Made by a program: the position numbers and the translations under genes. A stretch of 64,000 bases of DNA, taken from NCBI GenBank assembly GCA_011911785.1, contig GCA_011911785.1_4084.1; one strand, given 5' to 3'. The notes below the pieces were generated by a model, which was not told where the DNA came from, searched no databases, and saw only the letters and a list, made by a program, of their open reading frames with translations. Within the stretch, counting starts at the first letter, position 1, and every line of letters begins with the position of its first letter. This DNA is from a phage. Positions 1 to 64,000 of this stretch are shown piece by piece.

Positions 1-202
1 AATAACAGTACAGAAACGTTGTAAGCCAGTACAACATAGGGGTTTGTTTTGGGTGGAGTTGAGTGCATTAGCATTGAATTCAGAGTTGAGTACTGACTTC
101 TTCTATTCAGATGCGAAGCCAGAAAACTTTGGATATTTGAATGGTAAGTTAGTTAAGCTTGATTATGGAGATTAATATGTACGCATTGTATAATAAAGAA
201 AA

Positions 203-235
203 GGGTTGACTTCAGTCAGCCCTTTTTGCTATAAT
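203..235 (+). promoter_or_regulatory. Type-A terminator/promoter cassette: hairpin GGGTTGACTTCAGTCAGCCC + T-run, -35 TTGACT inside the stem, -10 TATAAT
   Basis: Read directly; near-identical cassette recurs at 931, 2356, 33296, 36728, 40039, 43119 and degenerate at 27554. Confidence 0.6.
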
Positions 236-263
236 TATTTCATCGAAACGAGAGGATGAATAC

Positions 264-701
264 ATGACACGCATTAACTTAGTACACGTTAAAGAACTTG
301 CTGACCAACATCTGATGGCTGAATATCGTGAACTTCCACGTGTGTTTGGTGCTGTACAAAAACATGTTCAAGCACGTAAGCGTGTACGTGATTTCAAAAT
401 TAACAGTACTTATCTGTTAGGTTCAGGTCATGTAACATTCTTCTACGACAAGTTACTGTACTTACAGAAGCGTCATATTGATATTGTTAACGAATGTTTG
501 CGTCGTGGTATGAAGATTCAAAACACTGAAGTAAACGACATTAGCGGCTTCCCTGCTGAGTTTTGTAATGACTACGTACCATCGGAGTCCGAGATTAAAA
601 CATCACGCGAGCGTTTGATTGAGAAGCTTCAGATGAAGCCTAAGTGGTATAAGTTTACTGATGTTGAGCTACCTGTATATTATGTTGATATGATACAATG
701 A
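264..701 (+). CDS. denV: Endonuclease V (pyrimidine dimer DNA glycosylase), phage T4 DenV homolog
   Basis: 145-aa product matches T4 endonuclease V along its length ([37 protein letters not shown]); T4 sequence recalled from memory. Confidence 0.9.
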
Positions 702-925
702 ATGATGAAGAATTCAAAAAATATGCGATTGAGAAGCTTGATTCATACAAGCCACGCGAAACGTATAAATTTAATCCTGATAAAACAAAAGCATCTATAA
801 GATGGTTGATTAATTCACCCAAATATACATTTGATGAAAAATATTCATGGATAGTGCAATGTAGTGATTATGAGGATTTGGTATATAATATTAAACTGTG
901 TTGGTATGAATACAACAATAAATGA
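698..925 (+). CDS. Hypothetical protein (75 aa)
   Basis: ATGA start/stop overlap with denV suggests translational coupling. Confidence 0.45.
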
Positions 926-930
926 TATAA

Positions 931-964
931 GGGGTTGACTTCGGTCAGCCCTTTTTGCTATAAT
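931..964 (+). promoter_or_regulatory. Type-A terminator/promoter cassette (GGGGTTGACTTCGGTCAGCCC + T-run; -10 TATAAT)
   Basis: Hairpin with TTCG loop followed by TTTTT, then TATAAT; read directly. Confidence 0.6.
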
Positions 965-990
965 CATTTCATCAACTCAAGAGGTAACAC

Positions 991-1227
991 ATGAAACTAT
1001 CTTTTATACGTTTAGCAGAATTCTTCGGTACTGATGTAATTACTCTACAACAAATCGCAGATAATACATCATTAACTACGCAAGAAGTACTTGACTTAGA
1101 TGTAATTAAGAGCGATAATACTTCCATTGATTTCAAAGAAGGTCTTGTCGAAAAAGATAAGATTCAAGCTAAGATTCATGGTGCTGGGCGGGTTCAGTAC
1201 TGGAAAGGAGTTTTAAGTAATGTTTGA
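991..1227 (+). CDS. Hypothetical protein (78 aa)
   Basis: ORF after type-A promoter with RBS GAGG. Confidence 0.45.
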   Translation: MKLSFIRLAEFFGTDVITLQQIADNTSLTTQEVLDLDVIKSDNTSIDFKEGLVEKDKIQAKIHGAGRVQYWKGVLSNV

Positions 1228-11002: not shown

Positions 11003-11035
11003 ATCAAAAAAGAAAAGCCAGTACAGAGTACTGGC
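11003..11035 (-). terminator. Intrinsic terminator GCCAGTAC-tct-GTACTGGC + T-run
   Basis: 8-bp stem followed by TTTTCTTTTTT on minus strand. Confidence 0.7.
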
Positions 11036-11046
11036 ATTTAAAATAA

Positions 11047-12222
11047 TCAAAATGTAGGAAGTTTGAATTCTCTCATAACAGATGAACTGCTTGCAGATAC
11101 ATTATCTGGTGATTTCCCTGCGTAGTATAATTTATTATCAATGAACATATACAATGTTGCATCATTTCCTGCTACAAGCGATTCACTTTTCTTAAATTTA
11201 ACACCACTAGGTAAAATTGCTTCAACAAATGAACCTGATTCTCGTGTAGTATTATTTGCCAATTGACCATTGTTATTATAACCAGTACTATAAATTTTAC
11301 CTGAACTATAATATACGAGTCCACGAGTACTAGTGTTTTCTATTCGAATGAATTCACTATCATCTGGAACTGTCGTTGATAGTACTGGGTTTAACTTATA
11401 AGCAGATGATACATTATTATTACCCAATTGACCATAACCTTGAAAGCCTAGTGTATACATAGGACATGATTCTGGTGTACCTTTTGTTATAATACCAATA
11501 TAATTCGTACTACAAAAAATGTCTATTACTTCTGTAATAGGTGTACCCTTATATTGAACCCAAGGGAATACATACGATTGTTGCTTACCATTTCCCAAAG
11601 TACCGGAAGTTGTTGTCCCAGTACGCCACATTGTATCATCAAGTTTAATAATCCAGTTAGCTGTCGTTATCGATGAACAGAATTTTTTAACATTATCCAC
11701 TAAAAATGTAAATTGATTATAATATGATGCAGTGTTTATACCAAACTTAGCACCAGTATTATCACCTAACAAATATAAACTATTATCTGTACCTAAAATC
11801 AAAGCATAATCATAACCCACGTATATATCTTTAATTCTTGAAATTCCAAATTGTGTAAAATAGCTTGTACATTCTGTGAATGTTGTTATATTATTGGTTG
11901 TATTATTACCCAGCCATTTATCTAAACCACTATAAAAGAATCTATCATCATTTGTGCGTATTAGACAAAAAGCGTTCATTGTACTGCACCAAAAATCTTT
12001 AACATTGCTATATATTTTTGTCCATTCAGTTAGTGGATTAGTATGACCTAAACCAAAAATTCCACCATTCTGAAGACCAATAGCCCATATTGAACCATTT
12101 TTATCAAGCATCATTGTACATGTATGTGAATAACCACCCGATGGTGTAACTAATTTAACAAAATTGGGAATATATGGTAAAACTTTATTTCCATAATCCA
12201 ACATTCTAACAAAAGGTAACAT
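11047..12222 (-). CDS. RCC1-like repeat protein, MLPFVRMLDYGN paralog (391 aa)
   Basis: YGQLGNN RCC1-type motif; RBS AAGGAGG. Confidence 0.65.
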   Translation of the reverse strand: MLPFVRMLDYGNKVLPYIPNFVKLVTPSGGYSHTCTMMLDKNGSIWAIGLQNGGIFGLGHTNPLTEWTKIYSNVKDFWCSTMNAFCLIRTNDDRFFYSGLDKWLGNNTTNNITTFTECTSYFTQFGISRIKDIYVGYDYALILGTDNSLYLLGDNTGAKFGINTASYYNQFTFLVDNVKKFCSSITTANWIIKLDDTMWRTGTTTSGTLGNGKQQSYVFPWVQYKGTPITEVIDIFCSTNYIGIITKGTPESCPMYTLGFQGYGQLGNNNVSSAYKLNPVLSTTVPDDSEFIRIENTSTRGLVYYSSGKIYSTGYNNNGQLANNTTRESGSFVEAILPSGVKFKKSESLVAGNDATLYMFIDNKLYYAGKSPDNVSASSSSVMREFKLPTF

Positions 12223-12292
12223 ATTCCCTCCTTTATTCATTATACTATATTTAATCAAAAAGAAATGCCAGCATCAAGTACTGGCGAAATTA

Positions 12293-13483
12293 TTACAATT
12301 GTCTAGGTGTATCCAGAACATATCTATTTGTACTAGGACCACCATCATCATACGTTCCGGTTGAATATATATTTTTCATATCAGCAGTTAAAAATGTACG
12401 ATACGAACCTCTATATATTTTTATTTTATCATACATAGAATATGTTATTTGTGCTGGCAGTGGACATGCAGTAAATCTACCAATAGTAACATTAGAACCA
12501 ACACCCAATGTACCAGCATAACTACTCTCATTTAAACCAGTTGCATATACACCAGTACTCGTAACTAGTATACTAGATTGTGTTGGATATCCAGTATGGA
12601 TTGAATACAACGTGCCAGTTGGTAGAGTAGTACTATTATTTCCTAATACTGCTAGTGCTGTACTAGTCGTAGTGTTATTACCCCATGCACCATTCCTAGC
12701 TAAACCACCCACAAGGAACTGGCGTGCTCCTGTACTTGGATTTTCAACTAAAGCACTGACCGCACCACTTGAACAACCAGTGTATTGTAACGTTTTTGTA
12801 TATGTTGTACTTGGCTGATATAAAGTATATTCATTATAGGGAGTCCATGTGGTACTGGTACTTATACCTGACGTACCACCACCAATATATAAATTATTTT
12901 GTGTATCAAAAAACATTACACAGTTATTTGTTGACTGTATTTGTGCAATATCAACATTAGGCGTGACAGCTTTTACAAATGATCCATCTGTTATTTGTTG
13001 AGTACTACCAGTACCATCAGCGAATTGTCTAGCCCCACTCCAACCAGTACTCCATATTGTATTATTATCCATTAATACCGTAAACCACGTAGTACCTCCA
13101 TACATCTGTTTAATTGAAGTACTTGAACTTTGCGTGTACAAATTTTCAATATATTGGTTATAACTTAAAAACGTAGTAGTACTAGTTGGTAAACCAATAT
13201 GATCACCATATCCACAATAAAAATAATTTGAGTCATTATCTTTTACTAATAAAGTTCCTTGTGTAACCCAGCAATCATTAACGTTTTCTCTAATTAATGT
13301 CCATGATTTTAATGCAGTGTTGTTTCCCCTCCCAAATTTCCCAAAACTATTATCCCCACGTGCATATAGTTGACCATCCGTATACAGAACAACAACATCT
13401 AAATCAGTTGGGATTATTTTCTTAATTTGAAGTGGTACTGGGGTAATATTCCCATAATCAAATAATCTAACAAAAGGTAACAT
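12293..13483 (-). CDS. RCC1-like repeat protein, MLPFVRLFDYGN paralog (396 aa)
   Basis: GDNSFGKFGRGNN motif; conserved leader. Confidence 0.65.
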   Translation of the reverse strand: MLPFVRLFDYGNITPVPLQIKKIIPTDLDVVVLYTDGQLYARGDNSFGKFGRGNNTALKSWTLIRENVNDCWVTQGTLLVKDNDSNYFYCGYGDHIGLPTSTTTFLSYNQYIENLYTQSSSTSIKQMYGGTTWFTVLMDNNTIWSTGWSGARQFADGTGSTQQITDGSFVKAVTPNVDIAQIQSTNNCVMFFDTQNNLYIGGGTSGISTSTTWTPYNEYTLYQPSTTYTKTLQYTGCSSGAVSALVENPSTGARQFLVGGLARNGAWGNNTTTSTALAVLGNNSTTLPTGTLYSIHTGYPTQSSILVTSTGVYATGLNESSYAGTLGVGSNVTIGRFTACPLPAQITYSMYDKIKIYRGSYRTFLTADMKNIYSTGTYDDGGPSTNRYVLDTPRQL

Positions 13484-13516
13484 ATATTCCTCCTTTATTC
13501 ATTATACTATATTTAC

Positions 13517-13548
13517 CCCAAAAAGAAATGCCAGTATCAAGTACTGGC
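13517..13548 (-). terminator. Intrinsic terminator GCCAGTA-cttga-TACTGGC + U-rich tract
   Basis: Read directly on minus strand. Confidence 0.6.
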
Positions 13549-13554
13549 CTATAT

Positions 13555-14724
13555 TTAAACTGGTGAATCTAATACAAATTCTAAACTACTAATGCCACCA
13601 TATGTGACATTTGTCCCTGTGCTATATACAAAATTACCATCAGTTATATAAGTTCGGTTATACCCACCTGCCATCTGCGACTTACTATAATCAAACCCAT
13701 CAGGAACGATTGCTTTGGTATATACTAATGCATTATTAGATGTACCAATACCTAACATACCAGCTTCTGAAGATTTATTGTAGCCGCAACAATATATACC
13801 ATCTGTTGTAGCAATAACTTGGTTATAATATGAAGTAATGTTAGCAATGCTTACTACATCACCGGGTGGCATTAGTGAAGCAGTTTGAACCTCAAATGCT
13901 CTATAATCACTGAGAGAACCATTTATCCCATCTGCTTGTGCACCAAATATTCTCGAACCGCCATTTGCGATGATGGTTTTACCAGTGGGATCAGTACCAA
14001 TTGCCATTGCCATTGAAGTACTATTCTCCATATAGTACTTGATATTAATTGTATTTCTTAAGCTGGTAGGAGCACCATAATATATAGTATATAACTTACC
14101 TCCTGAACTTGTAACTGCATTTACTCTTCCTGTATAAAATAGCCATCCTTGGTTTGTAACATAACCGTGCATTAAATTACTTGCAAACAATTTAACAGGT
14201 AATTGATCTGCTGCGGTCGGAACAGTACTTTTGACGAATTTTCTAGCAACATTGTTAGTTGTTGTCCCATCACCCAACTGACCATCACCCCCTGCTCCAG
14301 TACTCCATATTGTTTGGTCTGTTAGTAATACACTTGTAGTCTGATAACTAACTGCTATATCTAATATTGGTAATGTTAACGTATCGAATGTTGGCATAGC
14401 AGAAGTCCATATTGATACTGCTGCCCCTGGCATACCAACAGTTGTTGAACTTCCACTGTACCATATTTCATCATTGCTTTTCTTAATAACTATCGACGTG
14501 GCTCCCATCCAAAAATCTTGAACATCAGAAGTGCTAAAAGTCCATGTAGTAACAATATTTTTGTGACCTAAACCCAAAAGACCATTTGCATTCTCACCAC
14601 GCACATATAAATCACCACTGTTTGTTAAAACAGCAACATTATAGTTGTTAGCTAGTATTTTTTTAATATTTGGTTTAGCAGGTGCAATATTCCCATACTC
14701 TAACATTCTTACAAAAGGTAACAT
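13555..14724 (-). CDS. RCC1-like repeat protein, MLPFVRMLEYGN paralog (389 aa)
   Basis: GDGQLGDG and GLLGLGH motifs; track start 14856 rejected. Confidence 0.65.
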   Translation of the reverse strand: MLPFVRMLEYGNIAPAKPNIKKILANNYNVAVLTNSGDLYVRGENANGLLGLGHKNIVTTWTFSTSDVQDFWMGATSIVIKKSNDEIWYSGSSTTVGMPGAAVSIWTSAMPTFDTLTLPILDIAVSYQTTSVLLTDQTIWSTGAGGDGQLGDGTTTNNVARKFVKSTVPTAADQLPVKLFASNLMHGYVTNQGWLFYTGRVNAVTSSGGKLYTIYYGAPTSLRNTINIKYYMENSTSMAMAIGTDPTGKTIIANGGSRIFGAQADGINGSLSDYRAFEVQTASLMPPGDVVSIANITSYYNQVIATTDGIYCCGYNKSSEAGMLGIGTSNNALVYTKAIVPDGFDYSKSQMAGGYNRTYITDGNFVYSTGTNVTYGGISSLEFVLDSPV

Positions 14725-14757
14725 AATTCCTCCTTTATTCATTATATTATATTTAAT

Positions 14758-14789
14758 CCAAATAAGAAAGCCAGTATCAAGTACTGGCT
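14758..14789 (-). terminator. Intrinsic terminator AGCCAGTA-cttga-TACTGGCT + U-rich tract
   Basis: Read directly on minus strand. Confidence 0.6.
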
Positions 14790-14794
14790 TTAAT

Positions 14795-15943
14795 TCATTG
14801 TATAAATGACATATCAACTTCGGTATATCTTGTAGTGTACTGCCCAGAACTTCCACCCATTACTAGATTGGAAAAACCAGTATAAAATAACTTACCTTCA
14901 TCTGTGAGAATCAAACTACCGATGTTATTCAGTACTAAACTGTAAGAACTATTAAAATTAGCATAGGACTGGGTATAATAGAACTGATTTGTAAGATTAC
15001 CAACACCCAATTGTCCACCAGTGTTAACCCCAGTTGCAAATATCGTAGTACCAAATCTGCGAATATGCGAGGCCATATTGCCGACGCAACAATGTACATT
15101 CTGAACATCCGAATTCAATAAAGTTGGTGTTGTGTATTGCTTAAGTGTTGTGCCTGTACCGAATTCATTACCATATGATACCCCATACTGTGTACCACAA
15201 GCGTACAATTTATTATCATCTTTAATAAAAAATGTACTCTGATAACTTACATCGACATCTATAACATTAGTCTGTATTCTAACAACTCCAGTACTAGCAG
15301 TTTGATTGCCTGTCCCTAACTGATAGTAAGTGTTAATACCACAACCCCATAATGTATTATCTTCTTTTAGGTATATGTTACCAACAGCTTTTTTTACCGA
15401 TGATATGGCTTCAATCTTAACAAAGGCGTTAAATGAATTTGTATTTGTGCCATTACCAAAAGATGATCTGGTTGATGTGCTGTTTGTTCCGCAGCAATAT
15501 AAAGTACCATCAGTTGTTATCAAATTCACTTTAAGATCACTGTAACTACTCATGTATTTTATATCAGAAACATTAATACCACTGGATGTTATCCATGAAG
15601 TACAATCTGTCCACGTGTTATAATATGCACCTGAACCAGAAAACGCACTCGGACTTCCTGTTATAAACACTTTTCCAGTACCGTCTTCTTCATATAATTG
15701 ACAACCACTACTGTTATTTTCCAAAAGAACTCTTTTAACATTAGTTGCACTAAGAATAAATTTACTTGACGATACACCAGTCCCCGTACCCTGACTGACT
15801 GCTGCTGAAGCATACAAATTTTTAGTGTATGTATCATGAAAATACATAGCACTACCACCGGAATATATTTTAAAACGTGTACTAGGATCTGGTGGAATTG
15901 GTGCAATATTCCCATAATCTAACATTCTTACAAAAGGTAACAT
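14795..15943 (-). CDS. RCC1-like repeat protein, MLPFVRMLDYGN paralog (382 aa)
   Basis: YYQLGTGNQ and GGQLGVGN motifs; track start 16105 rejected. Confidence 0.65.
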   Translation of the reverse strand: MLPFVRMLDYGNIAPIPPDPSTRFKIYSGGSAMYFHDTYTKNLYASAAVSQGTGTGVSSSKFILSATNVKRVLLENNSSGCQLYEEDGTGKVFITGSPSAFSGSGAYYNTWTDCTSWITSSGINVSDIKYMSSYSDLKVNLITTDGTLYCCGTNSTSTRSSFGNGTNTNSFNAFVKIEAISSVKKAVGNIYLKEDNTLWGCGINTYYQLGTGNQTASTGVVRIQTNVIDVDVSYQSTFFIKDDNKLYACGTQYGVSYGNEFGTGTTLKQYTTPTLLNSDVQNVHCCVGNMASHIRRFGTTIFATGVNTGGQLGVGNLTNQFYYTQSYANFNSSYSLVLNNIGSLILTDEGKLFYTGFSNLVMGGSSGQYTTRYTEVDMSFIQ

Positions 15944-16013
15944 AATTCCTCCTTTATTCATTATATTATATTTAATCCAAATAAGAAAGCCAGTATCAAG
16001 TACTGGCATTATG

Positions 16014-17123: not shown

Positions 17124-17195
17124 AATTCCTCCTTTATTCATTATACTATATTTAATACAAATAAGAAAAGCCAGTACAGAGTACTGGCTATTATA

Positions 17196-18338: not shown

Positions 18339-18411
18339 AATTTCCTCCTTTATTCATTATACTATATTTAATACAAATAAGAAAAGCCAGTACAGAGTAC
18401 TGGCTATTATA

Positions 18412-48490: not shown

Positions 48491-48683
48491 TGAAGTAATA
48501 TTACTTATAGAGAATTCAAGTAAATTCTTAAACATATCACTGTCTGATATAGATGAAGATGACAAAGAAGTACTGAGAGCAGATTTAAGAGTACTGTTAC
48601 ATCTCGGAACAAACCTACAAGAGCAATTCGTTGAGGACTACATCGATGAACTTAAAGAATCAGTACTGAGAAGATGCAAATGA
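48468..48683 (+). CDS. F1 family small protein (71 aa)
   Basis: Motif HLGTNLQEQF. Confidence 0.5.
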   Translation: MKILNEGDEVILLIENSSKFLNISLSDIDEDDKEVLRADLRVLLHLGTNLQEQFVEDYIDELKESVLRRCK

Positions 48684-50624: not shown

Positions 50625-50958
50625 TGCGATAATGCGTAAGATCAATTGTATAAAAAGAGCGAATACATGTTTCATTGCGTTGACCAATGTACCGGGTGGG
50701 TCTGGTGTTAAGATATTTGAGTACAATAAAGTTGATAATTGTTTCTATTGGGTAGAAGGTATCAAATCATATGAAAATACGATAGCAGTACCGAATCTAG
50801 TTGATATCTCTGAAGAAGAAGAGTTTCAGTACATGTTAGTACACGATGATTCTTTTGGGTTGACATACAAAGAGATGAAGGAAGTACAAAGGCAGATGAT
50901 ATCATGTATGAATATTTCTAAGCATTTCCTTCAAAATATTCATCCAATTTACGTATAA
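50602..50958 (+). CDS. F2 family protein (118 aa; start may be 50632)
   Basis: Motif SEEEEFQYMLVHD. Confidence 0.45.
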   Translation: MTERDGDDAIMRKINCIKRANTCFIALTNVPGGSGVKIFEYNKVDNCFYWVEGIKSYENTIAVPNLVDISEEEEFQYMLVHDDSFGLTYKEMKEVQRQMISCMNISKHFLQNIHPIYV

Positions 50959-50967
50959 GAGATTAAT

Positions 50968-51303
50968 ATGAAATTCAACATTCATAGAATTAATTCCGGT
51001 TGTATATTTGCTTATACGCATGAGAATTACAAGAAGTACATGAATCATGAAGTACATTATGTTTTTGAGGACGGTAAAGAATATTTTGCTTATTTGAGTC
51101 CCAGGAGTTTAGGTAAGTACGAGTTGCTTCAGGATCTTTCTCTTATGCAGGAAGATGAATTATTTCAGTACAGTCTAATTCATGACCCTTATATGTTTGA
51201 TATAGATATTATGTGCAGTTTACAGAAGAGGATGAAAGAAGTTTGGGATTCGATTAAAAGAGGTGATTGTATAGAATATGATAGTATACAAGAAGATGCC
51301 TAA
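50968..51303 (+). CDS. F2 family protein (111 aa)
   Basis: Motif QEDELFQYSLIHD. Confidence 0.5.
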   Translation: MKFNIHRINSGCIFAYTHENYKKYMNHEVHYVFEDGKEYFAYLSPRSLGKYELLQDLSLMQEDELFQYSLIHDPYMFDIDIMCSLQKRMKEVWDSIKRGDCIEYDSIQEDA

Positions 51304-51496
51304 CGGATATGAATTGAAGTACAGACAGTTTATTCGAAATGTAGATTCAGATCCTTTTAATGTTAAAATGGCAGAGTTTGATTTATTATTTTATCTAGGA
51401 ACGAGAGCACAGCCACAATTCGTTGATGCATACATAAGGGCTTTACGAACAGAGATAGTATGCACACCAAAGGAGTCTAAATGTACAAAAATGTAA
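51278..51496 (+). CDS. F1 family small protein (72 aa)
   Basis: Motif YLGTRAQPQF. Confidence 0.5.
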   Translation: MIVYKKMPNGYELKYRQFIRNVDSDPFNVKMAEFDLLFYLGTRAQPQFVDAYIRALRTEIVCTPKESKCTKM

Positions 51497-51738
51497 ACCA
51501 TCATTTGTACGCATCGAAGTACAGGGATTTTTGTTTACAAGGGGGCGATGAAGATTTTGCTCTGCGATTATCGGAATTTAATATGTTATTTTATCTTGGT
51601 ACATCAGTACAAGAAGAAATGGTACAGAAATTTATCAAGCACCTTGAGCGAAAAATTCATACGCAAATTTTGGTTGTTAAGTTACAGAATGAGATAAATG
51701 AATACAATGCAGAATCTAACAATAGTACAGGATCTTAG
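51481..51738 (+). CDS. F1 family small protein (85 aa)
   Basis: Motif YLGTSVQEEM. Confidence 0.5.
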   Translation: MYKNVNHHLYASKYRDFCLQGGDEDFALRLSEFNMLFYLGTSVQEEMVQKFIKHLERKIHTQILVVKLQNEINEYNAESNNSTGS

Positions 51739-52099
51739 ACCAGTAATAATGATGTTAAATGCAAGACGAGATTTATGGCACGAAATGCATAACAAGAAGG
51801 ATTCATTTGCACAAATCAATTTAGTCTTTCAGGAGTTAATCCAGAGTGCATTGGGTGTTATCGAACCAAAATACAAAGATGGTATATTCTGTGTAAAGAA
51901 TGCAGTTCGTCCTCATGCAATTCCAAGGAAAATTAAGTTAGCCAGATTAACATTTGACGAGAGGGATTTCTTCAGTTATAATCCCAGTACAGCTTTATAT
52001 TTTATTCCTGATTCAGACAAATATCATCCTATCCATTACGGATGGATTATGTCTTATATAGTAAATGAAACGGAATACCCTATTAAATGGGAAAGATGA
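51698..52099 (+). CDS. Hypothetical protein (133 aa)
   Basis: ORF track; overlaps neighbours. Confidence 0.4.
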   Translation: MNTMQNLTIVQDLRPVIMMLNARRDLWHEMHNKKDSFAQINLVFQELIQSALGVIEPKYKDGIFCVKNAVRPHAIPRKIKLARLTFDERDFFSYNPSTALYFIPDSDKYHPIHYGWIMSYIVNETEYPIKWER

Positions 52100-52275
52100 T
52101 GATAGATACAAAGACATTAAATGCATTACAGGATTCATTATTAGATAGTATTAAGCTGTATTACAATATGCATTTGAGGGGTGGTATCAATGATTACAAT
52201 TATTATTTGAGTGTAATTATATTTGAGCATCTTTCAGTACAGGATAGAATTTTACACAAGTACAAACATTATTGA
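52087..52275 (+). CDS. Hypothetical small protein (62 aa)
   Basis: ORF track; ATG start. Confidence 0.35.
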   Translation: MGKMMIDTKTLNALQDSLLDSIKLYYNMHLRGGINDYNYYLSVIIFEHLSVQDRILHKYKHY

Positions 52276-52286
52276 GGAAACAAAAT

Positions 52287-52646
52287 ATGTTCAATAAAAT
52301 CATGTTCATTTTAACATTTGTGTTTTTATCATTCACAAACACCGCTCATGCAGCACAGGCAGTACAGGCATCATCGGATGTACCGTTATATGAAACATAC
52401 AAATTTGATTGCAGATTACAGAATAATGAAATAATCAATATCTTTTTACACAATACAGAAGTACCTTATTTGCAGATTGAAGCAACGAAGTACATGTATT
52501 ATGGTACGAATTCGGTACAGGAATTTTTATTTAAACACACAGAACAGGATGTAATTATATCATTGCAGTACGTTGATAGTTCATTGTCTTTAATGCATTT
52601 CAAGAATGCAGAGGGATTAGTTACAGTGCTCAAATGCTATAGGTAA
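52287..52646 (+). CDS. Small secreted protein with signal peptide (119 aa)
   Basis: MFNKIMFILTFVFLSFTNTAHA; RBS GAGGA; track TTG start 52272 rejected. Confidence 0.5.
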   Translation: MFNKIMFILTFVFLSFTNTAHAAQAVQASSDVPLYETYKFDCRLQNNEIINIFLHNTEVPYLQIEATKYMYYGTNSVQEFLFKHTEQDVIISLQYVDSSLSLMHFKNAEGLVTVLKCYR

Positions 52647-52652
52647 TAATAT

Positions 52653-53168
52653 ATGAATGAAATTGAATTATTAACGCACAAGATTAGTACAATAATGCTT
52701 ATGCTCAAAAATAATCATCCTATACATAAGTACATTGATATAGATGAATTACGCATAGAAGATAGGCATGGTAAATTATCGTTTATGTTTCACAATGCAA
52801 ATAATGCAGGGAATGTTAACGTTTGTTTTGCAGCATTTACCCAAGCCAATCCAGTACAAACATCTCCTGTTGTATACGAAAATAAAGAAGGGTATTTGTG
52901 GGTAAACACAAACGATTATTTCTTTTATGATTTGAAACAAGATGATGAAGTAGAAGAACGAATTGATTTAATTGATATTAGTACAGATTGTAGTGCTGAA
53001 TTATTTCAGAAATCGTTATTATATAGTCCTCGTCAAATGCATTATCTAAAGTTATTCAGTTCATTGTACGCGAATCCTTTAATTAAGGGTTTTAAATTTT
53101 ATATAAAAGTTCCTGACATTCAAGCAGTTTATGATATTTTGATGCAAGGATATAGTTATGAAGTATAG
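52653..53168 (+). CDS. F2 family protein (171 aa)
   Basis: Motif SAELFQKSLLYS. Confidence 0.5.
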   Translation: MNEIELLTHKISTIMLMLKNNHPIHKYIDIDELRIEDRHGKLSFMFHNANNAGNVNVCFAAFTQANPVQTSPVVYENKEGYLWVNTNDYFFYDLKQDDEVEERIDLIDISTDCSAELFQKSLLYSPRQMHYLKLFSSLYANPLIKGFKFYIKVPDIQAVYDILMQGYSYEV

Positions 53169-53466
53169 AATGCTCTATACCAAAGATATGATTTATGTTG
53201 AATTAGAAGGCGATGAAGACGGTTGGAATTTGATTTATTCATGTAGTTCAGGTTGGTACATGGCACATTTAAATGATAACGAAGTCACAGATTATTTTGT
53301 AGATTTCAATACATTATCCGACGAAGAATTGTTTCAACAGCAATTAGTGATTGACACAGGTGGATATGATGTGTTATTATTAAAAAAGATACAGAAAGCT
53401 GTTATGAATTTTAATGCACATGTATCCGAATGGGAAAGGAAATATTATGACCTCGAAGTACAATAA
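53158..53466 (+). CDS. F2 family protein (102 aa)
   Basis: Motif SDEELFQQQLVID. Confidence 0.5.
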   Translation: MKYRMLYTKDMIYVELEGDEDGWNLIYSCSSGWYMAHLNDNEVTDYFVDFNTLSDEELFQQQLVIDTGGYDVLLLKKIQKAVMNFNAHVSEWERKYYDLEVQ

Positions 53467-53815
53467 TACATTTGATATTAATAAGTTAACAGAATGGTTT
53501 TATAATATTGAAATTGAAGCTATTCCGTATCACAAGTACGAACAACGTGATTTACGTAGTATAGATATTCGTGAGTTGTACGAGTATTATCAGAGTGCAT
53601 TAGAGATGCATAAGATATTTTTGAGTACAGAATACATGACACGTTGTAAGGATGCGTTTGATGAATTCAAGAAGAATGATAATTTAGTACAGAAATATGT
53701 AATAGCAAAGTACATGTACCTTCAGGGAATTACAAGTACAGTGCAATTCAATACAGTTCTTGCTTTAGTTGAGATTATTTTATTATGCAAAAATGTAAAG
53801 TGGAATTTAGTTTAG
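53447..53815 (+). CDS. Hypothetical protein (122 aa)
   Basis: No family motif; track start 53414 rejected. Confidence 0.4.
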   Translation: MTSKYNNTFDINKLTEWFYNIEIEAIPYHKYEQRDLRSIDIRELYEYYQSALEMHKIFLSTEYMTRCKDAFDEFKKNDNLVQKYVIAKYMYLQGITSTVQFNTVLALVEIILLCKNVKWNLV

Positions 53816-54282
53816 AGAGTGCTGTGCAGTACGTTAAGTACATTGAAGGTGTATACAATATAATGAAAGCATATGAAGGAAAAGGATATGCTTCAATAAA
53901 TCACAAATATGATTATATTAACAATCAGTTAGAAGAATCAAATTCAGGTAAAGTGCTTTTTAGTTTTTTATATTTTGCTCCTGACAATGTATATCCTGAT
54001 GAAAATGATCTTCGTCTGGAAAGAGATGACCTTTGGTATATGTATCCAGGACGTGATAAGCCAATGGATGATGCTTTGTTGGAAATCAAATACAGTCCAG
54101 AACCCTTGACACCGGAGTTGTGGTTCCAGTACAGTACAATACATGAAGAAATTGATATCTTTTTCTACGCAATATACAAGATGCTTTATGAGAATGGTGT
54201 GCTTAAGAATCATGTATATTTTTATTTCCAGCAAATGAAAAATGTATATGAGTCCTTTTACCCAACCGAGCCTGTATCGTAA
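53785..54282 (+). CDS. F2 family protein (165 aa)
   Basis: Motif TPELWFQYSTIHEE. Confidence 0.5.
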   Translation: MQKCKVEFSLESAVQYVKYIEGVYNIMKAYEGKGYASINHKYDYINNQLEESNSGKVLFSFLYFAPDNVYPDENDLRLERDDLWYMYPGRDKPMDDALLEIKYSPEPLTPELWFQYSTIHEEIDIFFYAIYKMLYENGVLKNHVYFYFQQMKNVYESFYPTEPVS

Positions 54283-54308
54283 GATATGGGCTTTTTTTCG
54301 TTTTGGTA

Positions 54309-54337
54309 TTGACACAGTACAGAATCGGTGCTAATAT
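54309..54337 (+). promoter_or_regulatory. Sigma70-type promoter TTGACA-17-TAATAT inside the F2 array
   Basis: Preceded by a weak hairpin + T7 run. Confidence 0.5.
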
Positions 54338-54363
54338 ACCTGAACATTTTTAAGGAGAACCCC

Positions 54364-54897
54364 ATGCAAACATCGCAAAAATCGCAAGTACAGAAAGCAA
54401 TGTCATTCAATGAAATTGGTGCATTTAAAGATAAGATTATTGATTGTATTGAATACGCGATTTGTAGTAATATCAAAAGTATAGAGGTATTTAACAAGTC
54501 AAATCGCTCTTACCATATGATGTACATTGCAAACAATAATGGTATCATTCCATTTGTTTCGGATAGTACAATATGGTTCGCTTGCGATGTGAAAAAATAC
54601 ACAATAGGTTCATATGTCTTCGGTAAACATGGTGATCTAATTATTCCTGAGCATTGTATGCAAGAAGAAGAATATTTTCAAAAGCAATGTGTACATGAAC
54701 CATTAGAGATGGTTGCTTTATATATGATACCTTATATCTCTAAATGTGTTCATGAGAATAAAGCTCCGTGGAATCATGAATTTGTATCGTTGAAGTTATT
54801 GTATAATGTTTTAGTACAATATTATGATTACAGACACGAGGGTACAATCAGCGATGTATGGGATTTCGAAAATTTAAGGGTAAAAACATATGAATAA
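54364..54897 (+). CDS. F2 family protein (177 aa)
   Basis: Motif QEEEYFQKQCVHE; RBS AAGGAG; track start 54328 rejected. Confidence 0.5.
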   Translation: MQTSQKSQVQKAMSFNEIGAFKDKIIDCIEYAICSNIKSIEVFNKSNRSYHMMYIANNNGIIPFVSDSTIWFACDVKKYTIGSYVFGKHGDLIIPEHCMQEEEYFQKQCVHEPLEMVALYMIPYISKCVHENKAPWNHEFVSLKLLYNVLVQYYDYRHEGTISDVWDFENLRVKTYE

Positions 54898-55528
54898 TTT
54901 TCCAAGAAATGCTTCACCGTATGAGGTGATGAAGTTCATGGAGCCTCATGTTCCTTATATGTTTGAAATGCTAAAGAAGTTCAATGCTATTTTCCCTGAG
55001 AATTCAAAATTGGAGATTCCATTTGATTCCGCATCCAGATACAGTGCATCCTGTGGTAAATTAGTTTTAGTTATCGGTAGTGACAGAATAGGTTTCAGGG
55101 AAGTATTTGACACGTCATTAGCATTTGGTATATTCGATAACAACAATAACATCACATACATTGACAAGTACATTTGCGACATAGCAGGTTCCTCTAAGCC
55201 GGATTCCTTTGTGGATTCAGTTGCAGATTATGGTGTTTCAAAAGATGGTAATGTAATAAGTACAAAGACGTTCATATCATTATCGTTAGAAGATGACATA
55301 TGTTACATTGCAGGGCAAGAGTACGAGGGTGTAGAGGAAGTGCTTTTTCAAATGTCCTTAGTACAGAAGGATATGGTGGACCCTACCGAAATCCTGAAGT
55401 TGTGCAAATATGCGAATGAGTACAAGAAATTGATTGAACCTGGGTTTAGTTTCAGTGCACAGAGTCCGCATTTTCAGATAAAAGTATATGAAGATTTCAT
55501 TTTGAAGTTAAAAGAGATTGTGTTATAA
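54890..55528 (+). CDS. F2 family protein (212 aa)
   Basis: Motif VEEVLFQMSLVQKD. Confidence 0.5.
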   Translation: MNNFPRNASPYEVMKFMEPHVPYMFEMLKKFNAIFPENSKLEIPFDSASRYSASCGKLVLVIGSDRIGFREVFDTSLAFGIFDNNNNITYIDKYICDIAGSSKPDSFVDSVADYGVSKDGNVISTKTFISLSLEDDICYIAGQEYEGVEEVLFQMSLVQKDMVDPTEILKLCKYANEYKKLIEPGFSFSAQSPHFQIKVYEDFILKLKEIVL

Positions 55529-55580
55529 TACGCAATAACATGCAATAACACACAATACAACAAAGACGGGAGTGATTTAG

Positions 55581-56117
55581 ATGATCCAGCACAAACATTT
55601 TGAGTACGAGTTCGCTGACAATTTAGTAAAAATCGTACAGGCGTTTGAGGCTGGGGATTTTGACCACATCTATCCTAAGCACAAGGAAGGATGGCTTGAG
55701 CCTAAGAGCGATATTGAAAAGTATCCATCTATTGTGTATTACAGGAGAGATACGGTAATGCACGCTGTAGGTGAGAAGATGCAGTTAGAGTATTGTCTTT
55801 TGTTCAATGCTATTACATCGGCTACATCAGCATCTGAAGAGTTCGCTCCAGTGAATTGGATTCGTTATTTGGATATGAGCAAGAGAGAGGAAGAAACCTT
55901 TTTTGGTTTAACAAAGCACGTTGATATTGCAACCTTGAATCCTAACATCCTGAGTCCTGAAGAATATTTTCAGGAGTCCTTAGTACAAGATCCTTATATT
56001 TTACAGGTGCAGCAAGTATATAATGTATTACGTGCTAATGTGAAAACGAATTTCTTTTTAGCTTTAACGTGGTACGATAGGTTAGTAAAAGATCTCAAAG
56101 AGATTAAGGGGGAGTAA
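55581..56117 (+). CDS. F2 family protein (178 aa)
   Basis: Motif SPEEYFQESLVQD. Confidence 0.5.
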   Translation: MIQHKHFEYEFADNLVKIVQAFEAGDFDHIYPKHKEGWLEPKSDIEKYPSIVYYRRDTVMHAVGEKMQLEYCLLFNAITSATSASEEFAPVNWIRYLDMSKREEETFFGLTKHVDIATLNPNILSPEEYFQESLVQDPYILQVQQVYNVLRANVKTNFFLALTWYDRLVKDLKEIKGE

Positions 56118-56683
56118 TGCTGGACCTTCAGGACATAGAAAGTACATGCAAAGCGATAGAAGATGATTTAGAATACATCAAGGGGTTGTATTTAATTGTA
56201 GATAGGATTTACAAAAATCCGAATGCGTTTCAGGAAACGTACCAGCATGATAAATTTCGACACGAACCAATCATTACGCTTATGTCGGATTTATCGATTT
56301 ACGAAAGAAAATCCAACAAATCACATAGTGTATTATTTGTGAGTACAGATAGATTTTACAGTACAACATCAATTTGTTCAGATGTATCATGTGCATGGTT
56401 CAGTTCAAATGAATATATAACAGTTAAAAATAATGGCGAAAATGAGAAATTAAAAGTAAGTGAGCTTATTGATTTGATGCCATATAGTCCTGATGTAGTG
56501 TTTCAGTACAGTACATTGCACGATTATAATTCAATACGATATCGTTATTTTGTTAAGCATTATTATGATACCTTCGGGGAGTTAACGGAGAAGTTAACGT
56601 TGAGATTTGACCGTGATATTGATCTCGTTGCAATGCTTCAGTACATACAGTACGTGTTTGATAAGGACGCGGAAAAGGGGTAA
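56117..56683 (+). CDS. F2 family protein (188 aa)
   Basis: Motif SPDVVFQYSTLHD. Confidence 0.5.
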   Translation: MLDLQDIESTCKAIEDDLEYIKGLYLIVDRIYKNPNAFQETYQHDKFRHEPIITLMSDLSIYERKSNKSHSVLFVSTDRFYSTTSICSDVSCAWFSSNEYITVKNNGENEKLKVSELIDLMPYSPDVVFQYSTLHDYNSIRYRYFVKHYYDTFGELTEKLTLRFDRDIDLVAMLQYIQYVFDKDAEKG

Positions 56684-56895
56684 TTTTAAAATGATAAATA
56701 TAGGCTTGTTTTTGGGGGCGTTTTGGGGGGTCAAAAAAATTTTCGCTGAAAAACATGTTAAGGTATATGTTTAATATAAAATTTTATATTGTGTTTTTCA
56801 GAGTACAGTTCATGTTTCCTTAAACAAAAAATACCCCGCCGCCGAACGTGCTCCTTATATTGTAGTTTACCTTATTAATTATAGTAGAGGTTATT

Positions 56896-57252
56896 ATGAG
56901 CAATGATTTTGCTATTCACAGTTTTTTCTACAAAAAGGTTGAGTTCTATTGTAATCTCGTTAAGGGTGATACCAATCATTCGTTGGACCAATATATTAAG
57001 TACACCTCAAATGGATTTTCTTTTATTGATTACGGTCGAGTGGGTGGTGGTGTTAATGAACCTATGCTGGACTATACAGAAATGGATGAGGCTACACTAT
57101 TTCAGGAATCATTAGTGTTCGATAAGAAATATATTTGTACACTAGATGAAGTTATTGGTATTCAGAATATCATGAAAGAACACTCTGCGAAGTGCATGAT
57201 AGAATTAACTCAAGATAAGCACAAGACTGTTCAGTACCATTTCAATCTTTAG
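56896..57252 (+). CDS. F2 family protein (118 aa)
   Basis: Motif DEATLFQESLVFD. Confidence 0.5.
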   Translation: MSNDFAIHSFFYKKVEFYCNLVKGDTNHSLDQYIKYTSNGFSFIDYGRVGGGVNEPMLDYTEMDEATLFQESLVFDKKYICTLDEVIGIQNIMKEHSAKCMIELTQDKHKTVQYHFNL

Positions 57253-61187: not shown

Positions 61188-61725
61188 TGAGATAATTTCT
61201 TTTGCAAATAAGTTAAGTACACTAACCAAATTGACGGAAGTAGTACTGCAAGATGAGCGTATACTTTCTAGGAGTGAGCTAATTGTTTCACAACACGATT
61301 ACATGACGTATATGTCTTTCAGATCGTCAGGCCGAACAATTATTAAGTTCGGTTCTGTTCCTGAAACAAATGGAAAATTATCTATGTGCACCCATAACAA
61401 TGGGGAATTGTATGGATTAGTGTACAGAAAAGATTCGACAGTACTGAATACTTTTAATGCAGGTGCGAGTGCAGTTGATGTTACATCATTAAGCGATGTT
61501 GACAAACACATAGATTTACCACACATTGAAATTAATGAAGAAAGTGTTTTTCAGTTAAGTACTTTGTACAATGATATTGAAGTGTTTGGTATTTCTTTAT
61601 GGAATATCCTTCGTTTAAGGGATGATGCTCCTGTATTTGTATATGCAAATTATGAAGACATTGATACTTGTATTGATGAAATGGAGAAATACATTGATCA
61701 ATTTAAACAAAACTTCCACATTTGA
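61177..61725 (+). CDS. F2 family protein (182 aa)
   Basis: Motif NEESVFQLSTLYND. Confidence 0.5.
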   Translation: MTYDEIISFANKLSTLTKLTEVVLQDERILSRSELIVSQHDYMTYMSFRSSGRTIIKFGSVPETNGKLSMCTHNNGELYGLVYRKDSTVLNTFNAGASAVDVTSLSDVDKHIDLPHIEINEESVFQLSTLYNDIEVFGISLWNILRLRDDAPVFVYANYEDIDTCIDEMEKYIDQFKQNFHI

Positions 61726-62284
61726 TATTCACGAGAAAGCTAAGCTACTCATCAGTACTGCTGAATATTATTACGATACAGTACTGAGTCAATCACCTTC
61801 TACATTTCGTGATTTAGTTAAATCATTTAATAAAACACAAAAAGACTGTGAGCTTTCATATAATGGTGTGAACTTTATGTATATTAAACCATATATGTCA
61901 AAGCGTGATTTGATTAAATGCAATGATGATTTCAAGATTGATCGTGATTTAAATCGTTTCTTCTACGATGTAAGAAGCAATCTGTATCAACTTACATTAA
62001 ATTCCAGTACTTCTTTCATTATTGGATTGGGTAAGAATTTAGGCACAGGTACTTCATTTTATAATAAAGGTGCAGTACAAGATGTGGATCTCAATCCAAG
62101 TACTGATGTTGCATTCCAACAGGATTTGATTATGAATGTGGATTCAGCATCAGTATACAGTTCTAATGTTCTGTGTAAGGAATTTCAGAATTCCAAAATT
62201 CTTGAGTTATTGTACATTGCGGATTGCAATATACTGTACAAATTTTGTACTCATCTGAAGGAGATTTATGAAAAAAGAAATTAG
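61676..62284 (+). CDS. F2-like protein (~202 aa; start uncertain, overlaps upstream gene)
   Basis: VAFQQDLIMN in the motif position; first in-frame ATG after track start region. Confidence 0.35.
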   Translation: MKWRNTLINLNKTSTFDIHEKAKLLISTAEYYYDTVLSQSPSTFRDLVKSFNKTQKDCELSYNGVNFMYIKPYMSKRDLIKCNDDFKIDRDLNRFFYDVRSNLYQLTLNSSTSFIIGLGKNLGTGTSFYNKGAVQDVDLNPSTDVAFQQDLIMNVDSASVYSSNVLCKEFQNSKILELLYIADCNILYKFCTHLKEIYEKRN

Positions 62285-62636
62285 AATCCAATTCGGTATG
62301 AGGAAAAAAGAGGTCATTTGTACACTGAATCATGCGGTCGTGGAAAGGTTTGATGCATTACAAAAATTCTCCCATTTTGTTCTTGTACTATATGAAAATG
62401 GGTCTTTTAAAATCTTCACATATGATGATTCAAAAAATTATCGTAATGATTTTGTAAATCTTACAGTACTGTCAGAAGAGGAATTCTTTCAGGAAAGTAC
62501 AGTCTGGGATTTACCAGGAGCACCAATTGAATACGTCCGTGCTACACAGGCAGAAATGATCAAAGCAATGCAGAACTATCCAGAAGATCATATGACTAAG
62601 TTTCCTGAATCTATTCATGTAGAGGTTGAGTACTGA
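62268..62636 (+). CDS. F2 family protein (122 aa)
   Basis: Motif SEEEFFQESTVWD. Confidence 0.5.
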   Translation: MKKEIRIQFGMRKKEVICTLNHAVVERFDALQKFSHFVLVLYENGSFKIFTYDDSKNYRNDFVNLTVLSEEEFFQESTVWDLPGAPIEYVRATQAEMIKAMQNYPEDHMTKFPESIHVEVEY

Positions 62637-62974
62637 TGGATTTAGTAAAAGTTACTATAGCCAAACATCAGTACTATGTAATGATTGAGTTAGGTTATAA
62701 CCACAAGAAAGAACATTTTTATTATCTTACATATGAAAAGAATATGTTCAAGATAATCACTAATAATTTAGCACGAGATGTATTTCATATTTTTGATTAC
62801 AGTGATTATAGTGAAGAAGAGTTATTTCAGGAATCATTAGTATGGGAGTACAATAGAATTGTAGATATTGAAAAGTTATTTAAGTATCAACAACTAATGA
62901 AAGATATAATGAATAACTATCCATGTGAACTACAAAGAGAACTGGAATTTATTGTCCAATACAAAGAGGTTTAA
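62636..62974 (+). CDS. F2 family protein (112 aa)
   Basis: Motif SEEELFQESLVWE. Confidence 0.5.
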   Translation: MDLVKVTIAKHQYYVMIELGYNHKKEHFYYLTYEKNMFKIITNNLARDVFHIFDYSDYSEEELFQESLVWEYNRIVDIEKLFKYQQLMKDIMNNYPCELQRELEFIVQYKEV

Positions 62975-62976
62975 TT

Positions 62977-63513
62977 ATGTTAGATTATGACAGAATAGAG
63001 AAAGATGATTGGGACGGTACTCACCATTTAAAGGTTGACACTTTTGAACACGCTCGCAGTACTGCTCAAGATCTTATGCAAATCCATGAGTTCATTTGTA
63101 ATAACAGAGAGACTTCTATTTGGACAAAATCTGACAGATTTATTGATTCAAGTTATGATTACTTCAGTATTCGTTCAAATCATCTAGATGATGACGGGTA
63201 CAGTGTTGATATGTTCAATATCAACAAATTTAATGACCCTGAATATGATCCAAAATACAGCGGTGGATTTTTAAGTTATTCCCCTAACTATGACAGAATA
63301 AAGTTCTTTTACGTAGATACTGACATTGTTCTTCCATTTATCGAAGAAGAACTTACCGAAGAACTGTTCTTTCAGATGAGTACTGTTGACGACCCGTACA
63401 TAGTTGGTGTACAATTCATGTTCTCTTGGCTTAAACAGAATAACTTCCCTCCTTTTTATGTTGACCTTACTTTTTACGATTTGATTTGGAATTTTGTTCG
63501 TAATCCATCTTGA
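62977..63513 (+). CDS. F2 family protein (178 aa)
   Basis: Motif TEELFFQMSTVDD. Confidence 0.5.
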   Translation: MLDYDRIEKDDWDGTHHLKVDTFEHARSTAQDLMQIHEFICNNRETSIWTKSDRFIDSSYDYFSIRSNHLDDDGYSVDMFNINKFNDPEYDPKYSGGFLSYSPNYDRIKFFYVDTDIVLPFIEEELTEELFFQMSTVDDPYIVGVQFMFSWLKQNNFPPFYVDLTFYDLIWNFVRNPS

Positions 63514-63538
63514 CACCTCCTTCTGTGCATGATATAAT
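63510..63538 (+). promoter_or_regulatory. Sigma70-type promoter TTGACA-17-TATAAT
   Basis: Read directly. Confidence 0.55.
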
Positions 63539-63569
63539 CTTTTTCATCTAATACGAAAAGGATCATATC

Positions 63570-64000
63570 ATGCAATTCAATCCTGAACTCTCATACAGTA
63601 ATGCTATAACTTTTGCAGACAATTTAATTCGCATTCATAACTTTTTAAGAGATGTTGAAACTAATTTTGACGTTACATATGTGGACCCCAAAAGTGGAGA
63701 GATGTTTACCGATACAGTACAGGTATCCAGTATTCTGTCATTTCGTATGCATATGTTATACAGCAAAGTTGAAGCACATAATAATGTAAGAATTCTTGGT
63801 TCGTCATTCTTTGGATTCAATGCGAAAGCGAAAGGTACTCTTCGTTTTTATAAAGAATTTTTGGAGTACGAAGATATAGAATATATAGATCTCATTGATA
63901 TCAATGATGAGTGTGAATACTTTCAGTACTGCACAATCTATTCAGAAGATGTGGTTTTTGCATTAACTGCAATATCTGAATTGCATAAAAAATTACCACC
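63570..64000 (+). CDS. F2 family protein, 3'-truncated by window end
   Basis: Not in ORF track (no stop); hand-translated MQFNPELSY..; motif ECEYFQYCTIYSED; RBS AAAAGGA. Confidence 0.45.
   Translation, partial: MQFNPELSYSNAITFADNLIRIHNFLRDVETNFDVTYVDPKSGEMFTDTVQVSSILSFRMHMLYSKVEAHNNVRILGSSFFGFNAKAKGTLRFYKEFLEYEDIEYIDLIDINDECEYFQYCTIYSEDVVFALTAISELHKKLP

Follow-up and report, generated by a model that had tools for sequence, protein, structure and literature searches.

Why would a group of phages keep one palindromic hexamer in large excess, when palindromes are usually lost from phage genomes under restriction pressure? This question is raised by a 64,000-nucleotide stretch of phage DNA (GenBank assembly GCA_011911785.1, contig GCA_011911785.1_4084.1), hereafter the window, in which an earlier note had claimed that AGTACT is heavily over-represented and might serve as a DNA-binding protein site, a modification target or a recombination hotspot. 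The over-representation was borne out: we counted 267 AGTACT sites in the window, compared to 21.0 ± 4.0 (maximum 30) in 100 dinucleotide-preserving shuffles, an excess of ~13-fold. The word is enriched, not depleted, and does not share the usual fate of palindromes, i.e., restriction-site avoidance. From the evidence presented here, AGTACT is very probably a selected recognition word of a clade-specific protein. Beyond what the earlier note described, the excess extends genome- and clade-wide, peaks in the terminal repeat and is accompanied by a strand-polar AGTACA domain, while the placement of the word in promoters is perhaps incidental.

Megablast identified the window as coming from an Asteriusvirus (121Q/PBECO4/A4-like) jumbo coliphage with 121Q, PBECO4, G17 and SP27 as relatives. 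Of the records matched, Escherichia phage A4 is closest (~97% identity in parts of the window; the other relatives reach 82-92%), and Asteriusvirus phages fall in the Rak2-like group, distant kin of T4. The window contains about 143 open reading frames (ORFs), small for the most part, and scans of it for tRNAs and against Rfam gave no match. For comparison we used the complete A4 genome (355,528 bp), samples from other genera, including Klebsiella phage RaK2 (50 kb), Yersinia phage fHe-Yen9-04 (40 kb) and Salmonella phage Munch (25 kb), and a 50-kb sample of E. coli K-12 as control.

Results

Abundance and context of AGTACT

Relative to the zero-order expectation, AGTACT is enriched 12.3-fold and is by far the top palindromic hexamer of the window (the runner-up, TGTACA, reaches 2.1-fold); when hexamers of all kinds were ranked, CAGTAC and GTACTG led. 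The flanks are symmetric, with C at -1 in 124 of the 267 sites and G at +1 in 124, giving the consensus [C]AGTACT[G]. Since the 62 occurrences of CAGTACTG in the window come close to the ~58 expected from the product of the flank frequencies (0.67 from composition), the -1 and +1 flanks act independently. The sites as a feature of the window are:

1-64,000, no strand: 267 AGTACT sites, comprising 164 coding, 100 non-coding and 3 on gene edges.

The 164 sites within ORFs agree with the earlier claim that the word is common inside coding sequence. Density is uneven, at 6.6 per kb between 24,467 and 44,610 and 3.6-4.7 per kb in the flanks. Expressed as spacing, sites lie on average ~390 bp apart in the phage genome and ~150 bp apart in the terminal repeat; no helical periodicity of spacing was found genome-wide.

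Codon usage and dipeptides

Coding sites are spread over all three frames (72/38/54; n = 164). Shuffling the order of codons within genes left 24.0 ± 4.9 coding sites, and shuffling synonymous codons while keeping every protein left 55.4 ± 6.1 (maximum 72), compared to the 164 observed. The possibility raised earlier, that codon usage for Ser-Thr, Val-Leu and Gln-Tyr pairs together with promoter consensus would suffice, therefore failed. In the complete A4 genome, AGT-ACT spells 376 of 730 Ser-Thr pairs, where codon usage predicts 106, and the reverse, ACT-AGT, is depleted. The dipeptides ST, VL and QY are 1.35-1.5x above expectation in A4 while TS, LV and YQ are not inflated; therefore, the DNA word has reshaped the proteins, not vice versa. 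Taken together, the shuffles, the frame spread and the dipeptide test ruled out a codon or dipeptide explanation. Outside the early region of A4, moreover, coding density equals non-coding density (1.6-2.8 per kb vs. 0.34 expected), structural and replication genes included. A pure sigma-70 promoter element (UP, -35 or extended -10) was also rejected, since positions within promoters vary, 164 of the 267 sites (61%) lie in ORFs and the excess reaches late genes.

A4 carries a tRNA set (304-307 kb; L007 4019-7088) that includes Ser(GCU), which reads AGU, plus Thr(UGU), Ser(UGA), Asn, Met and Gly. Such tRNAs may compensate for the many AGT and ACT codons brought in by the word.

Clade distribution and selection on sites

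The complete A4 genome contains 922 AGTACT sites, compared to 100-120 expected (8-9x), and 224 copies of CAGTACTG, compared to 3.7 (60x). The AGTACT excess is common to five enterobacterial Rak2-like lineages, being present also in RaK2 (125 vs. 16.6; 7.5x), Cronobacter phage GAP32 (105 vs. 17; 6.2x), fHe-Yen9-04 (85 vs. 13.6; 6.3x) and Munch (56 vs. 8.3; 6.7x). No excess was seen in the more distant relatives and controls, i.e., Pseudomonas phage PA5oct (depleted, 3 vs. 16.6; 0.2x), Xanthomonas phage XacN1 (depleted, 0 vs. 6.3), T4 (depleted, 4 vs. 13.5; 0.3x) or the E. coli K-12 sample (depleted, 3 vs. 11.6; 0.3x).

When the window was aligned with fEgEco12 or 121Q (85-88% identity), coding AGTACT sites were 76-79% conserved, compared to 48-53% for all hexamers, and non-coding sites 89-93%, compared to a background of 61-63% (P from 2e-5 to 1e-8 for conservation over background within the genus). 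Between A4 and GAP32 (73% nucleotide identity), 32% of sites are co-located, compared to 17-21% for average hexamers, and each genome keeps ~62 sites across the 36 kb aligned. Considering this high conservation within the genus and the turnover between genera at steady density, sites are protected in the short term and replaced in the long term. AGTACT sites are under purifying selection, and a functional signal at the DNA level is therefore well supported. To this extent the earlier interpretation is supported in part; of its three options, the modification target found no positive support, the methyltransferases of the clade being of other kinds (see below).

One-mismatch neighbours of AGTACT are not depleted (1.1-2.2x), and there is therefore no signature of very-short-patch-like conversion; biased repair of that type was ruled out on these grounds. 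The outer-position variants AGTACV are ~2x enriched genome-wide in A4, above the inner-position variants.

The terminal repeat and its early promoters

The direct terminal repeat (DTR) of fEgEco12 is 20,993 bp long, as established by PhageTerm and ten restriction digests (PMC13070987), and that of Sharanji 20,668 bp (PMC11895373). In the window, the DTR boundaries were placed by homology to fEgEco12, not measured for the window phage itself. The features in this segment and to its left are:

~24,467-44,610, no strand: DTR-homologous segment, from alignment of the fEgEco12 repeat, for which ~24,518-44,518 was also obtained; 132 AGTACT sites, 6.6 per kb, the densest part.

24,222-26,104, no strand: non-coding leader at the left edge of the DTR; of its 19 AGTACT sites, most are extended to TTCAGTACTGAA.

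26,500-44,200, plus strand: early sigma-70 cassettes of promoter, GGGGA(N)TCCCC stem-loop and ribosome-binding site, with AGTACT at -16.5/-17.5, -26.5, -36.5 or -39.5.

11,017-18,404, minus strand: seven paralogous terminator hairpins, GCCAGTA-N5-TACTGGC, between RCC1-like genes (RCC1 domains by Pfam).

Sites in the DTR segment are more even than Poisson (variance/mean 0.38 for counts per kb), and in fEgEco12 AGTACT drops from 6.6 per kb to zero at the inner end of the repeat. The leader is the non-coding island to which the earlier note had ascribed ~16 sites in 1.7 kb; the excess stands, while the count was low, as 24,222-26,104 has 19 sites compared to ~0.6 expected. The DTR segment holds ~55 small early genes, each with a cassette of sigma-70 promoter, stem-loop and ribosome-binding site. 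Among 39 promoter-like sites at 20-46 kb, 26 have an AGTACT whose centre falls within -45 to -10, with modes at -16.5/-17.5 (n = 17), -26.5 (n = 4, plus one at -25.5), -36.5 (n = 5) and -39.5 (n = 3, plus one at -40.5); a further centre lies at -46.5, and no single position is fixed. Promoter sites are often paired, 20-24 bp apart.

The earlier claims about these cassettes fared unevenly. Placement upstream of -35 was confirmed by the cassette AAAGTACTTG (n = 17), in which the site is centred at -36.5 and abuts the TTGCAA -35 element. Supply of the extended -10 TG by the word is true of the AGTACTGG-CATAAT class, where TG is at the canonical -15/-14, but not of AGTACTG-TATAAT, where it lies at -14/-13, one base off. 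As for terminator stems, the seven hairpins are indeed built of half-words, CAGTA(C)/(G)TACTG, but each contains one AGTACT, not two. Three of the seven read GCCAGTAC-AGA-GTACTGGC, and the AGTACTGGC part begins at 11027, 12277, 13540, 14780, 15999, 17180 and 18396.

Several other elements were observed in the window. A genome end falls near 24,467 by homology to fEgEco12. The leader contains 8-bp iterons, CTAGACGG/CTAAACGG, at 25,294-25,397, four copies of GGATTTTGGGCGTAG and two repeats of 69 nt; the GC skew flips sign within it, and it has no Rfam match. Early ORFs include a ParE-like toxin domain (38,551-38,805), a GNAT acetyltransferase (35,025-35,381), a weak protein-kinase-like match (39,440-40,024) and a T4 endonuclease V-type pyrimidine-dimer glycosylase (264-701). 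The E. coli Chi sequence (GCTGGTGG) occurs nine times on the plus strand of the window and never on the minus strand, compared to ~0.4 expected, at 6273, 30516, 34868, 35563, 36813, 39181, 41106, 43008 and 43231; eight of these are in the DTR segment, some of them intergenic. A4 has 21 Chi on the plus strand and 2 on the minus strand. So oriented, Chi would act on RecBCD that enters at the right-hand end of the repeat; part of its abundance may be due to codon bias (GCT-GGT-GG).

AGTACT-free zones and a strand-polar AGTACA domain

Just inside the repeat, two zones (44,611-48,500 and 50,700-57,000) are without any AGTACT:

44,611-48,500, no strand: AGTACT-free zone over a tandem array of genes for 70-85 aa; 6 TGTACT only; the gap is also present in fEgEco12, 121Q and A4.

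50,720-57,004, plus strand: polar AGTACA domain; 45 AGTACA, zero TGTACT and zero AGTACT.

Between 50,700 and 57,000, AGTACA was counted 44 times, compared to 2.9 expected (P = 3e-36), with frames at 13/12/10. The unbroken run comprises 50 AGTACA on the plus strand and 0 on the minus strand between 50,344 and 59,231, while in the remaining window AGTACA lies 47 times on the plus strand and 58 on the minus strand. Its flank preferences resemble those of AGTACT, and in the stretch at 51.5-57.5 kb the sixth base is A in 37 of 46 AGTACN. These results suggest that the unit read is AGTAC on one strand and that the palindrome is its economical presentation on two. The polar layout is kept in A4, 121Q and fEgEco12 although their islands are just 75-85% identical; the conserved order begins with the palindrome-dense repeat and passes through a zone with few sites and a short stretch of palindromes to 6-8 kb of AGTACA all in one orientation, after which palindromes resume.

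Genes of the polar domain form a diverged paralogue family with a common FQ(E/Y)SL(V) peptide, and the AGTACA run reaches 59,081. A replication origin, as read from the divergent polarity around 49 kb, was considered and dropped, since the minus-oriented TGTACT words share one context and were probably inherited via paralogues.

Absence of GCGC from the same clade

A second word is missing altogether. GCGC occurs 0 times in the window, compared to 45 ± 6 expected, and 0 times in the whole A4 genome, compared to 338; none was present in the sampled RaK2, GAP32, fHe-Yen9-04, Munch, 121Q or fEgEco12 sequences. Observed and expected counts are normal in PA5oct (47/35), T4 (47/42) and E. coli (342/215), and XacN1 is ~2-fold depleted (42/89). 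The clade distribution of GCGC absence is the same as that of the AGTACT excess. The simplest reading would be a GCGC-specific nuclease that the Rak2-like clade encodes or constantly faces, and the absence suggests a second, complementary word-based discrimination. We found no paper linking GCGC absence to these phages.

Other words are scarce in the whole A4 genome. CTAG, GGCC and CCGG are 2- to 3-fold depleted, and TAAATA is strongly under-represented (165 vs. 903 expected), as would be expected if T4-like late-promoter sequences (TATAAATA) were avoided except in genuine promoters. The same genome has a repeated non-coding element of ~0.4-0.5 kb, detected by multiple BLAST hits outside the window, at four unannotated gaps near 65.2, 125.9, 205.6 and 321.0 kb, which is conserved in GAP32 (L010 27,509-28,015).

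Methyltransferases and host factors

The earlier note had called for a check for a cognate methyltransferase. By Pfam and PDB comparisons, Asteriusvirus and RaK2 share a Dam-family methyltransferase (PF05869) and a small C5 enzyme; an N6/N4-type methyltransferase was found in the Yersinia phage only. The C5 enzyme (A4_120, L006:42647-44545; RaK2 ORF194, L009:16708-17601) has the DNMT3A/3B catalytic domains as its nearest solved relatives (E = 2e-22; M.HaeIII, 2.5e-8), and in A4 it is split by an intein with a LAGLIDADG domain. RaK2 DNA is reported to be methylated, with CpG methylation (PMC3622015), and the predicted DNMT3-like activity fits that report. DNA of fEgEco12 gave the predicted patterns with ten restriction enzymes (PMC13070987). 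Judged by their homologies, none of the clade's methyltransferases appears to point to AGTACT.

Among host factors, LexA and TrpR sites do not seem to fit in spacing and CTAG content. SlmA, the E. coli nucleoid-occlusion factor, has the consensus GTGAGTACTCAC, with AGTACT as its core; the SlmA-type 12-mer GTNAGNNCTNAC has 0 matches in the window and none of the 267 AGTACT sites matches, so that a SlmA consensus site was ruled out.

Discussion

What might read AGTACT?

Our preferred reading, to which we give a probability of roughly 0.4, is that a dimeric, double-strand DNA-binding protein occupies the AGTACT sites. Going beyond the observed enrichment, independence from coding, selection, clade distribution, terminal-repeat peak and promoter position, we infer that the word has a protein reader, that its gene is carried by the phage, and what follows from binding. 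The protein, most probably phage-encoded, would read AGTAC with a weak preference for a 5' C, and the palindrome would offer the word on both strands. Since AGTACT is rare in the host (3 in 50 kb of E. coli; a 40- to 100-fold density difference) and dense in the phage, the word could act as a self-tag, directing its reader almost only to phage DNA. Most early promoters have a site within the RNA polymerase footprint, so that in the terminal repeat the bound protein would shut off or modulate early transcription; elsewhere in the genome, it may coat or organise phage DNA.

Several observations weigh against this proposal. A reader protein was not identified: comparison of 30 window ORFs with Pfam gave no DNA-binding or nuclease domain (the matches were GNAT, ParE-like, kinase-like, RCC1/Kelch, pyrimidine-dimer glycosylase and DUF families), and the terminal-repeat ORFs have almost no Pfam matches. 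AGTACT is enriched 5-8x inside late structural genes, which a transcription-factor operator would not normally need. The equality of coding and non-coding density outside the terminal repeat implies that promoter placement may only mark where a short cassette tolerates the word; indeed, the promoter spacer may be merely the tolerant part of an intergenic region of 55-90 bp. Many cassettes are paralogous copies, so the counts of promoter positions are not independent, and neither is the apparent 10-bp phasing independent evidence. Finally, the polar domain indicates that orientation counts somewhere, which fits a strand-reading machine better than a symmetric dimer.

Such a machine is the first alternative, and one we consider possible while doubting it. 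Here a phage machine that moves along DNA or synthesises it would read AGTAC(W) from a single strand as a processing signal. The word might attenuate or orient a helicase-nuclease or translocase in the manner of Chi or KOPS, be the target of a site-specific nickase that initiates recombination-dependent replication, or be a site where primase prefers to start; the palindrome would then work for movement in either direction, and the polar domain for one direction only. The 50 co-oriented AGTACA, present in three frames and kept in four genomes, are in its favour, as is the enrichment of AGTACV words above inner-position variants. So is the density peak in the terminal repeat, a place of DNA-end processing and of recombination between repeats, where true E. 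coli Chi is likewise concentrated in one orientation. The equal coding and non-coding densities outside the repeat also agree with a processing signal, and the genome-wide spacing of 0.4-0.6 kb is comparable to that of the short Chi words of some bacteria. On the other side, we identified no cognate enzyme, the polar signals known so far lack palindromic symmetry, and the opposite polarity of the zone at 44.6-48.5 kb is slight and was probably passed on with paralogues. In addition, the sixth base of the polar domain is specifically A, not any base, so a second specificity would be needed. Compared with the dimer, a processing signal explains the polar domain and the equal densities better, and the palindrome and promoter placement less well.

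It is less probable again, in our judgement, that AGTACT is a methylation or modification target, as proposed for HIP1, the highly iterated palindrome of cyanobacteria. A phage methyltransferase would mark the word, and the modified site would serve, e.g., in protection or timing. AGTACT-specific restriction (ScaI/Eco255I-type) exists in E. coli, and ~920 such sites would need protection. The clade does encode DNA methyltransferases, RaK2 DNA is methylated according to the report cited above, and HIP1 abundance correlates with orphan methyltransferases (PMC4390886). Against this, the enzymes found do not point to AGTACT, the methylation reported for RaK2 is at CpG, which AGTACT lacks, and fEgEco12 DNA was cut as predicted by all ten enzymes. 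Methylation would also leave the terminal-repeat peak and the polar domain unexplained.

Titration or recruitment of a host protein such as SlmA is very improbable. The enriched phages all infect Enterobacterales, their non-enriched relatives infect Pseudomonas or Xanthomonas, and the SlmA core matches AGTACT. However, GTNAGTACTNAC is found in 0 of the 267 sites; the flanks prefer C/G, while SlmA needs G..C with outer GT..AC, and GAGTACTC is absent from the window. T4, which grows on the same host, is depleted in AGTACT.

We hold an equally slight expectation that the excess is a neutral by-product of context-biased mutation or repair (very-short-patch-like), or of the decay of eliminated GCGC into GTAC. 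GTAC is GCGC with both CpG cytosines changed to T, GCGC is totally absent from the same clade, and GTGC and GCAC are mildly enriched (1.4-1.6x). Decay was ruled out because the numbers do not fit: the GTAC excess of A4, ~1,400, is four times the GCGC expectation of 338. Moreover, specificity extends to the outer A..T and C..G positions, one-mismatch neighbours show no depletion, conservation is far over background in non-coding DNA too, and two resident regions are word-free across the genus.

Weakest of all, and with a chance we regard as negligible, is codon usage plus promoter consensus alone, for which AGT-ACT, GTA-CTN and CAG-TAC are all ordinary codons and a repeated promoter cassette accounts for 17 copies, but which the two kinds of shuffle, the use of all three frames, the uninflated reversed dipeptides and the equal densities beyond the early region contradict.

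Significance

A whole clade of 350-kb phages has multiplied one palindrome to ~920 copies per genome, under a pressure strong enough to reshape proteins through excess Ser-Thr, Val-Leu and Gln-Tyr. This points to a sequence-reading protein central to the biology of these phages, which may act in early shut-off, in handling of the terminal repeat or in discrimination between phage and host DNA. As a speculation that we think rather unlikely, these phages might define 'self' lexically, not chemically: AGTAC, read from one strand by phage machinery, would have to be present, and GCGC, of which A4 has no copy in 355 kb, absent. If so, the two words would tell phage enzymes which DNA to act on or leave alone as phage DNA and which, as the host's, to destroy, with no need for base modification, and AGTAC would be a phage-encoded analogue of Chi or KOPS. 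The phages are under development for therapy, where they would be extremely sensitive to AGTACT-specific restriction unless their sites are protected. In the literature we found no prior description of AGTACT, CAGTACTG or GCGC in this connection; coverage was incomplete, so novelty is not thereby proven.

Comparison with known systems

Among known systems the nearest is HIP1 (GCGATCGC), a word hyper-abundant in cyanobacteria, whose conservation between related genomes beyond background is read as a sign of selection and which has no agreed function (PMC5861425); it has two cognate methyltransferases (PMC4390886). Like HIP1, AGTACT is palindromic, occurs in coding and non-coding DNA and has sites conserved beyond background. 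It differs in that the word is another one, is carried by a clade of phages instead of a phylum of bacteria, and has no evident cognate methyltransferase. Unlike HIP1, AGTACT has a sharp maximum in the terminal repeat and a domain of a strand-polar derivative.

Chi and KOPS are over-represented short words by which a moving machine recognises a cell's own DNA. Copies of AGTACA in the polar domain keep to one orientation just as strictly, and the terminal repeat is itself enriched in E. coli Chi of a single orientation; AGTACT differs in being a palindrome. We know of no RecBCD/AddAB- or FtsK-type reader specific for it. SlmA sites have the AGTACT core in common with the phage word, while the flanks that define them are missing from all 267 sites.

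The modules at 26-44 kb, in which a strong sigma-70 promoter precedes a stem-loop and then a ribosome-binding site between small early genes, resemble the promoter-early stem-loop (PeSL) cassettes of T4-type phages, reportedly described by Arbiol, Comeau and Krisch in 2010. AGTACT is not known from PeSLs, and here it is also found in genes and genome-wide. A further parallel is offered by Bacillus phage SPO1, whose early host-takeover genes lie in a long terminal redundancy and whose TF1 is an abundant DNA-binding protein on early promoters. In the window phage, too, early genes under numerous strong host-type promoters occupy a long terminal redundancy, and a phage protein on those promoters would, in parallel, coat the DNA and repress early transcription. 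No homologue of TF1 was found, none having been looked for. The difference is that TF1 tells phage DNA by hydroxymethyluracil, not by a sequence word.

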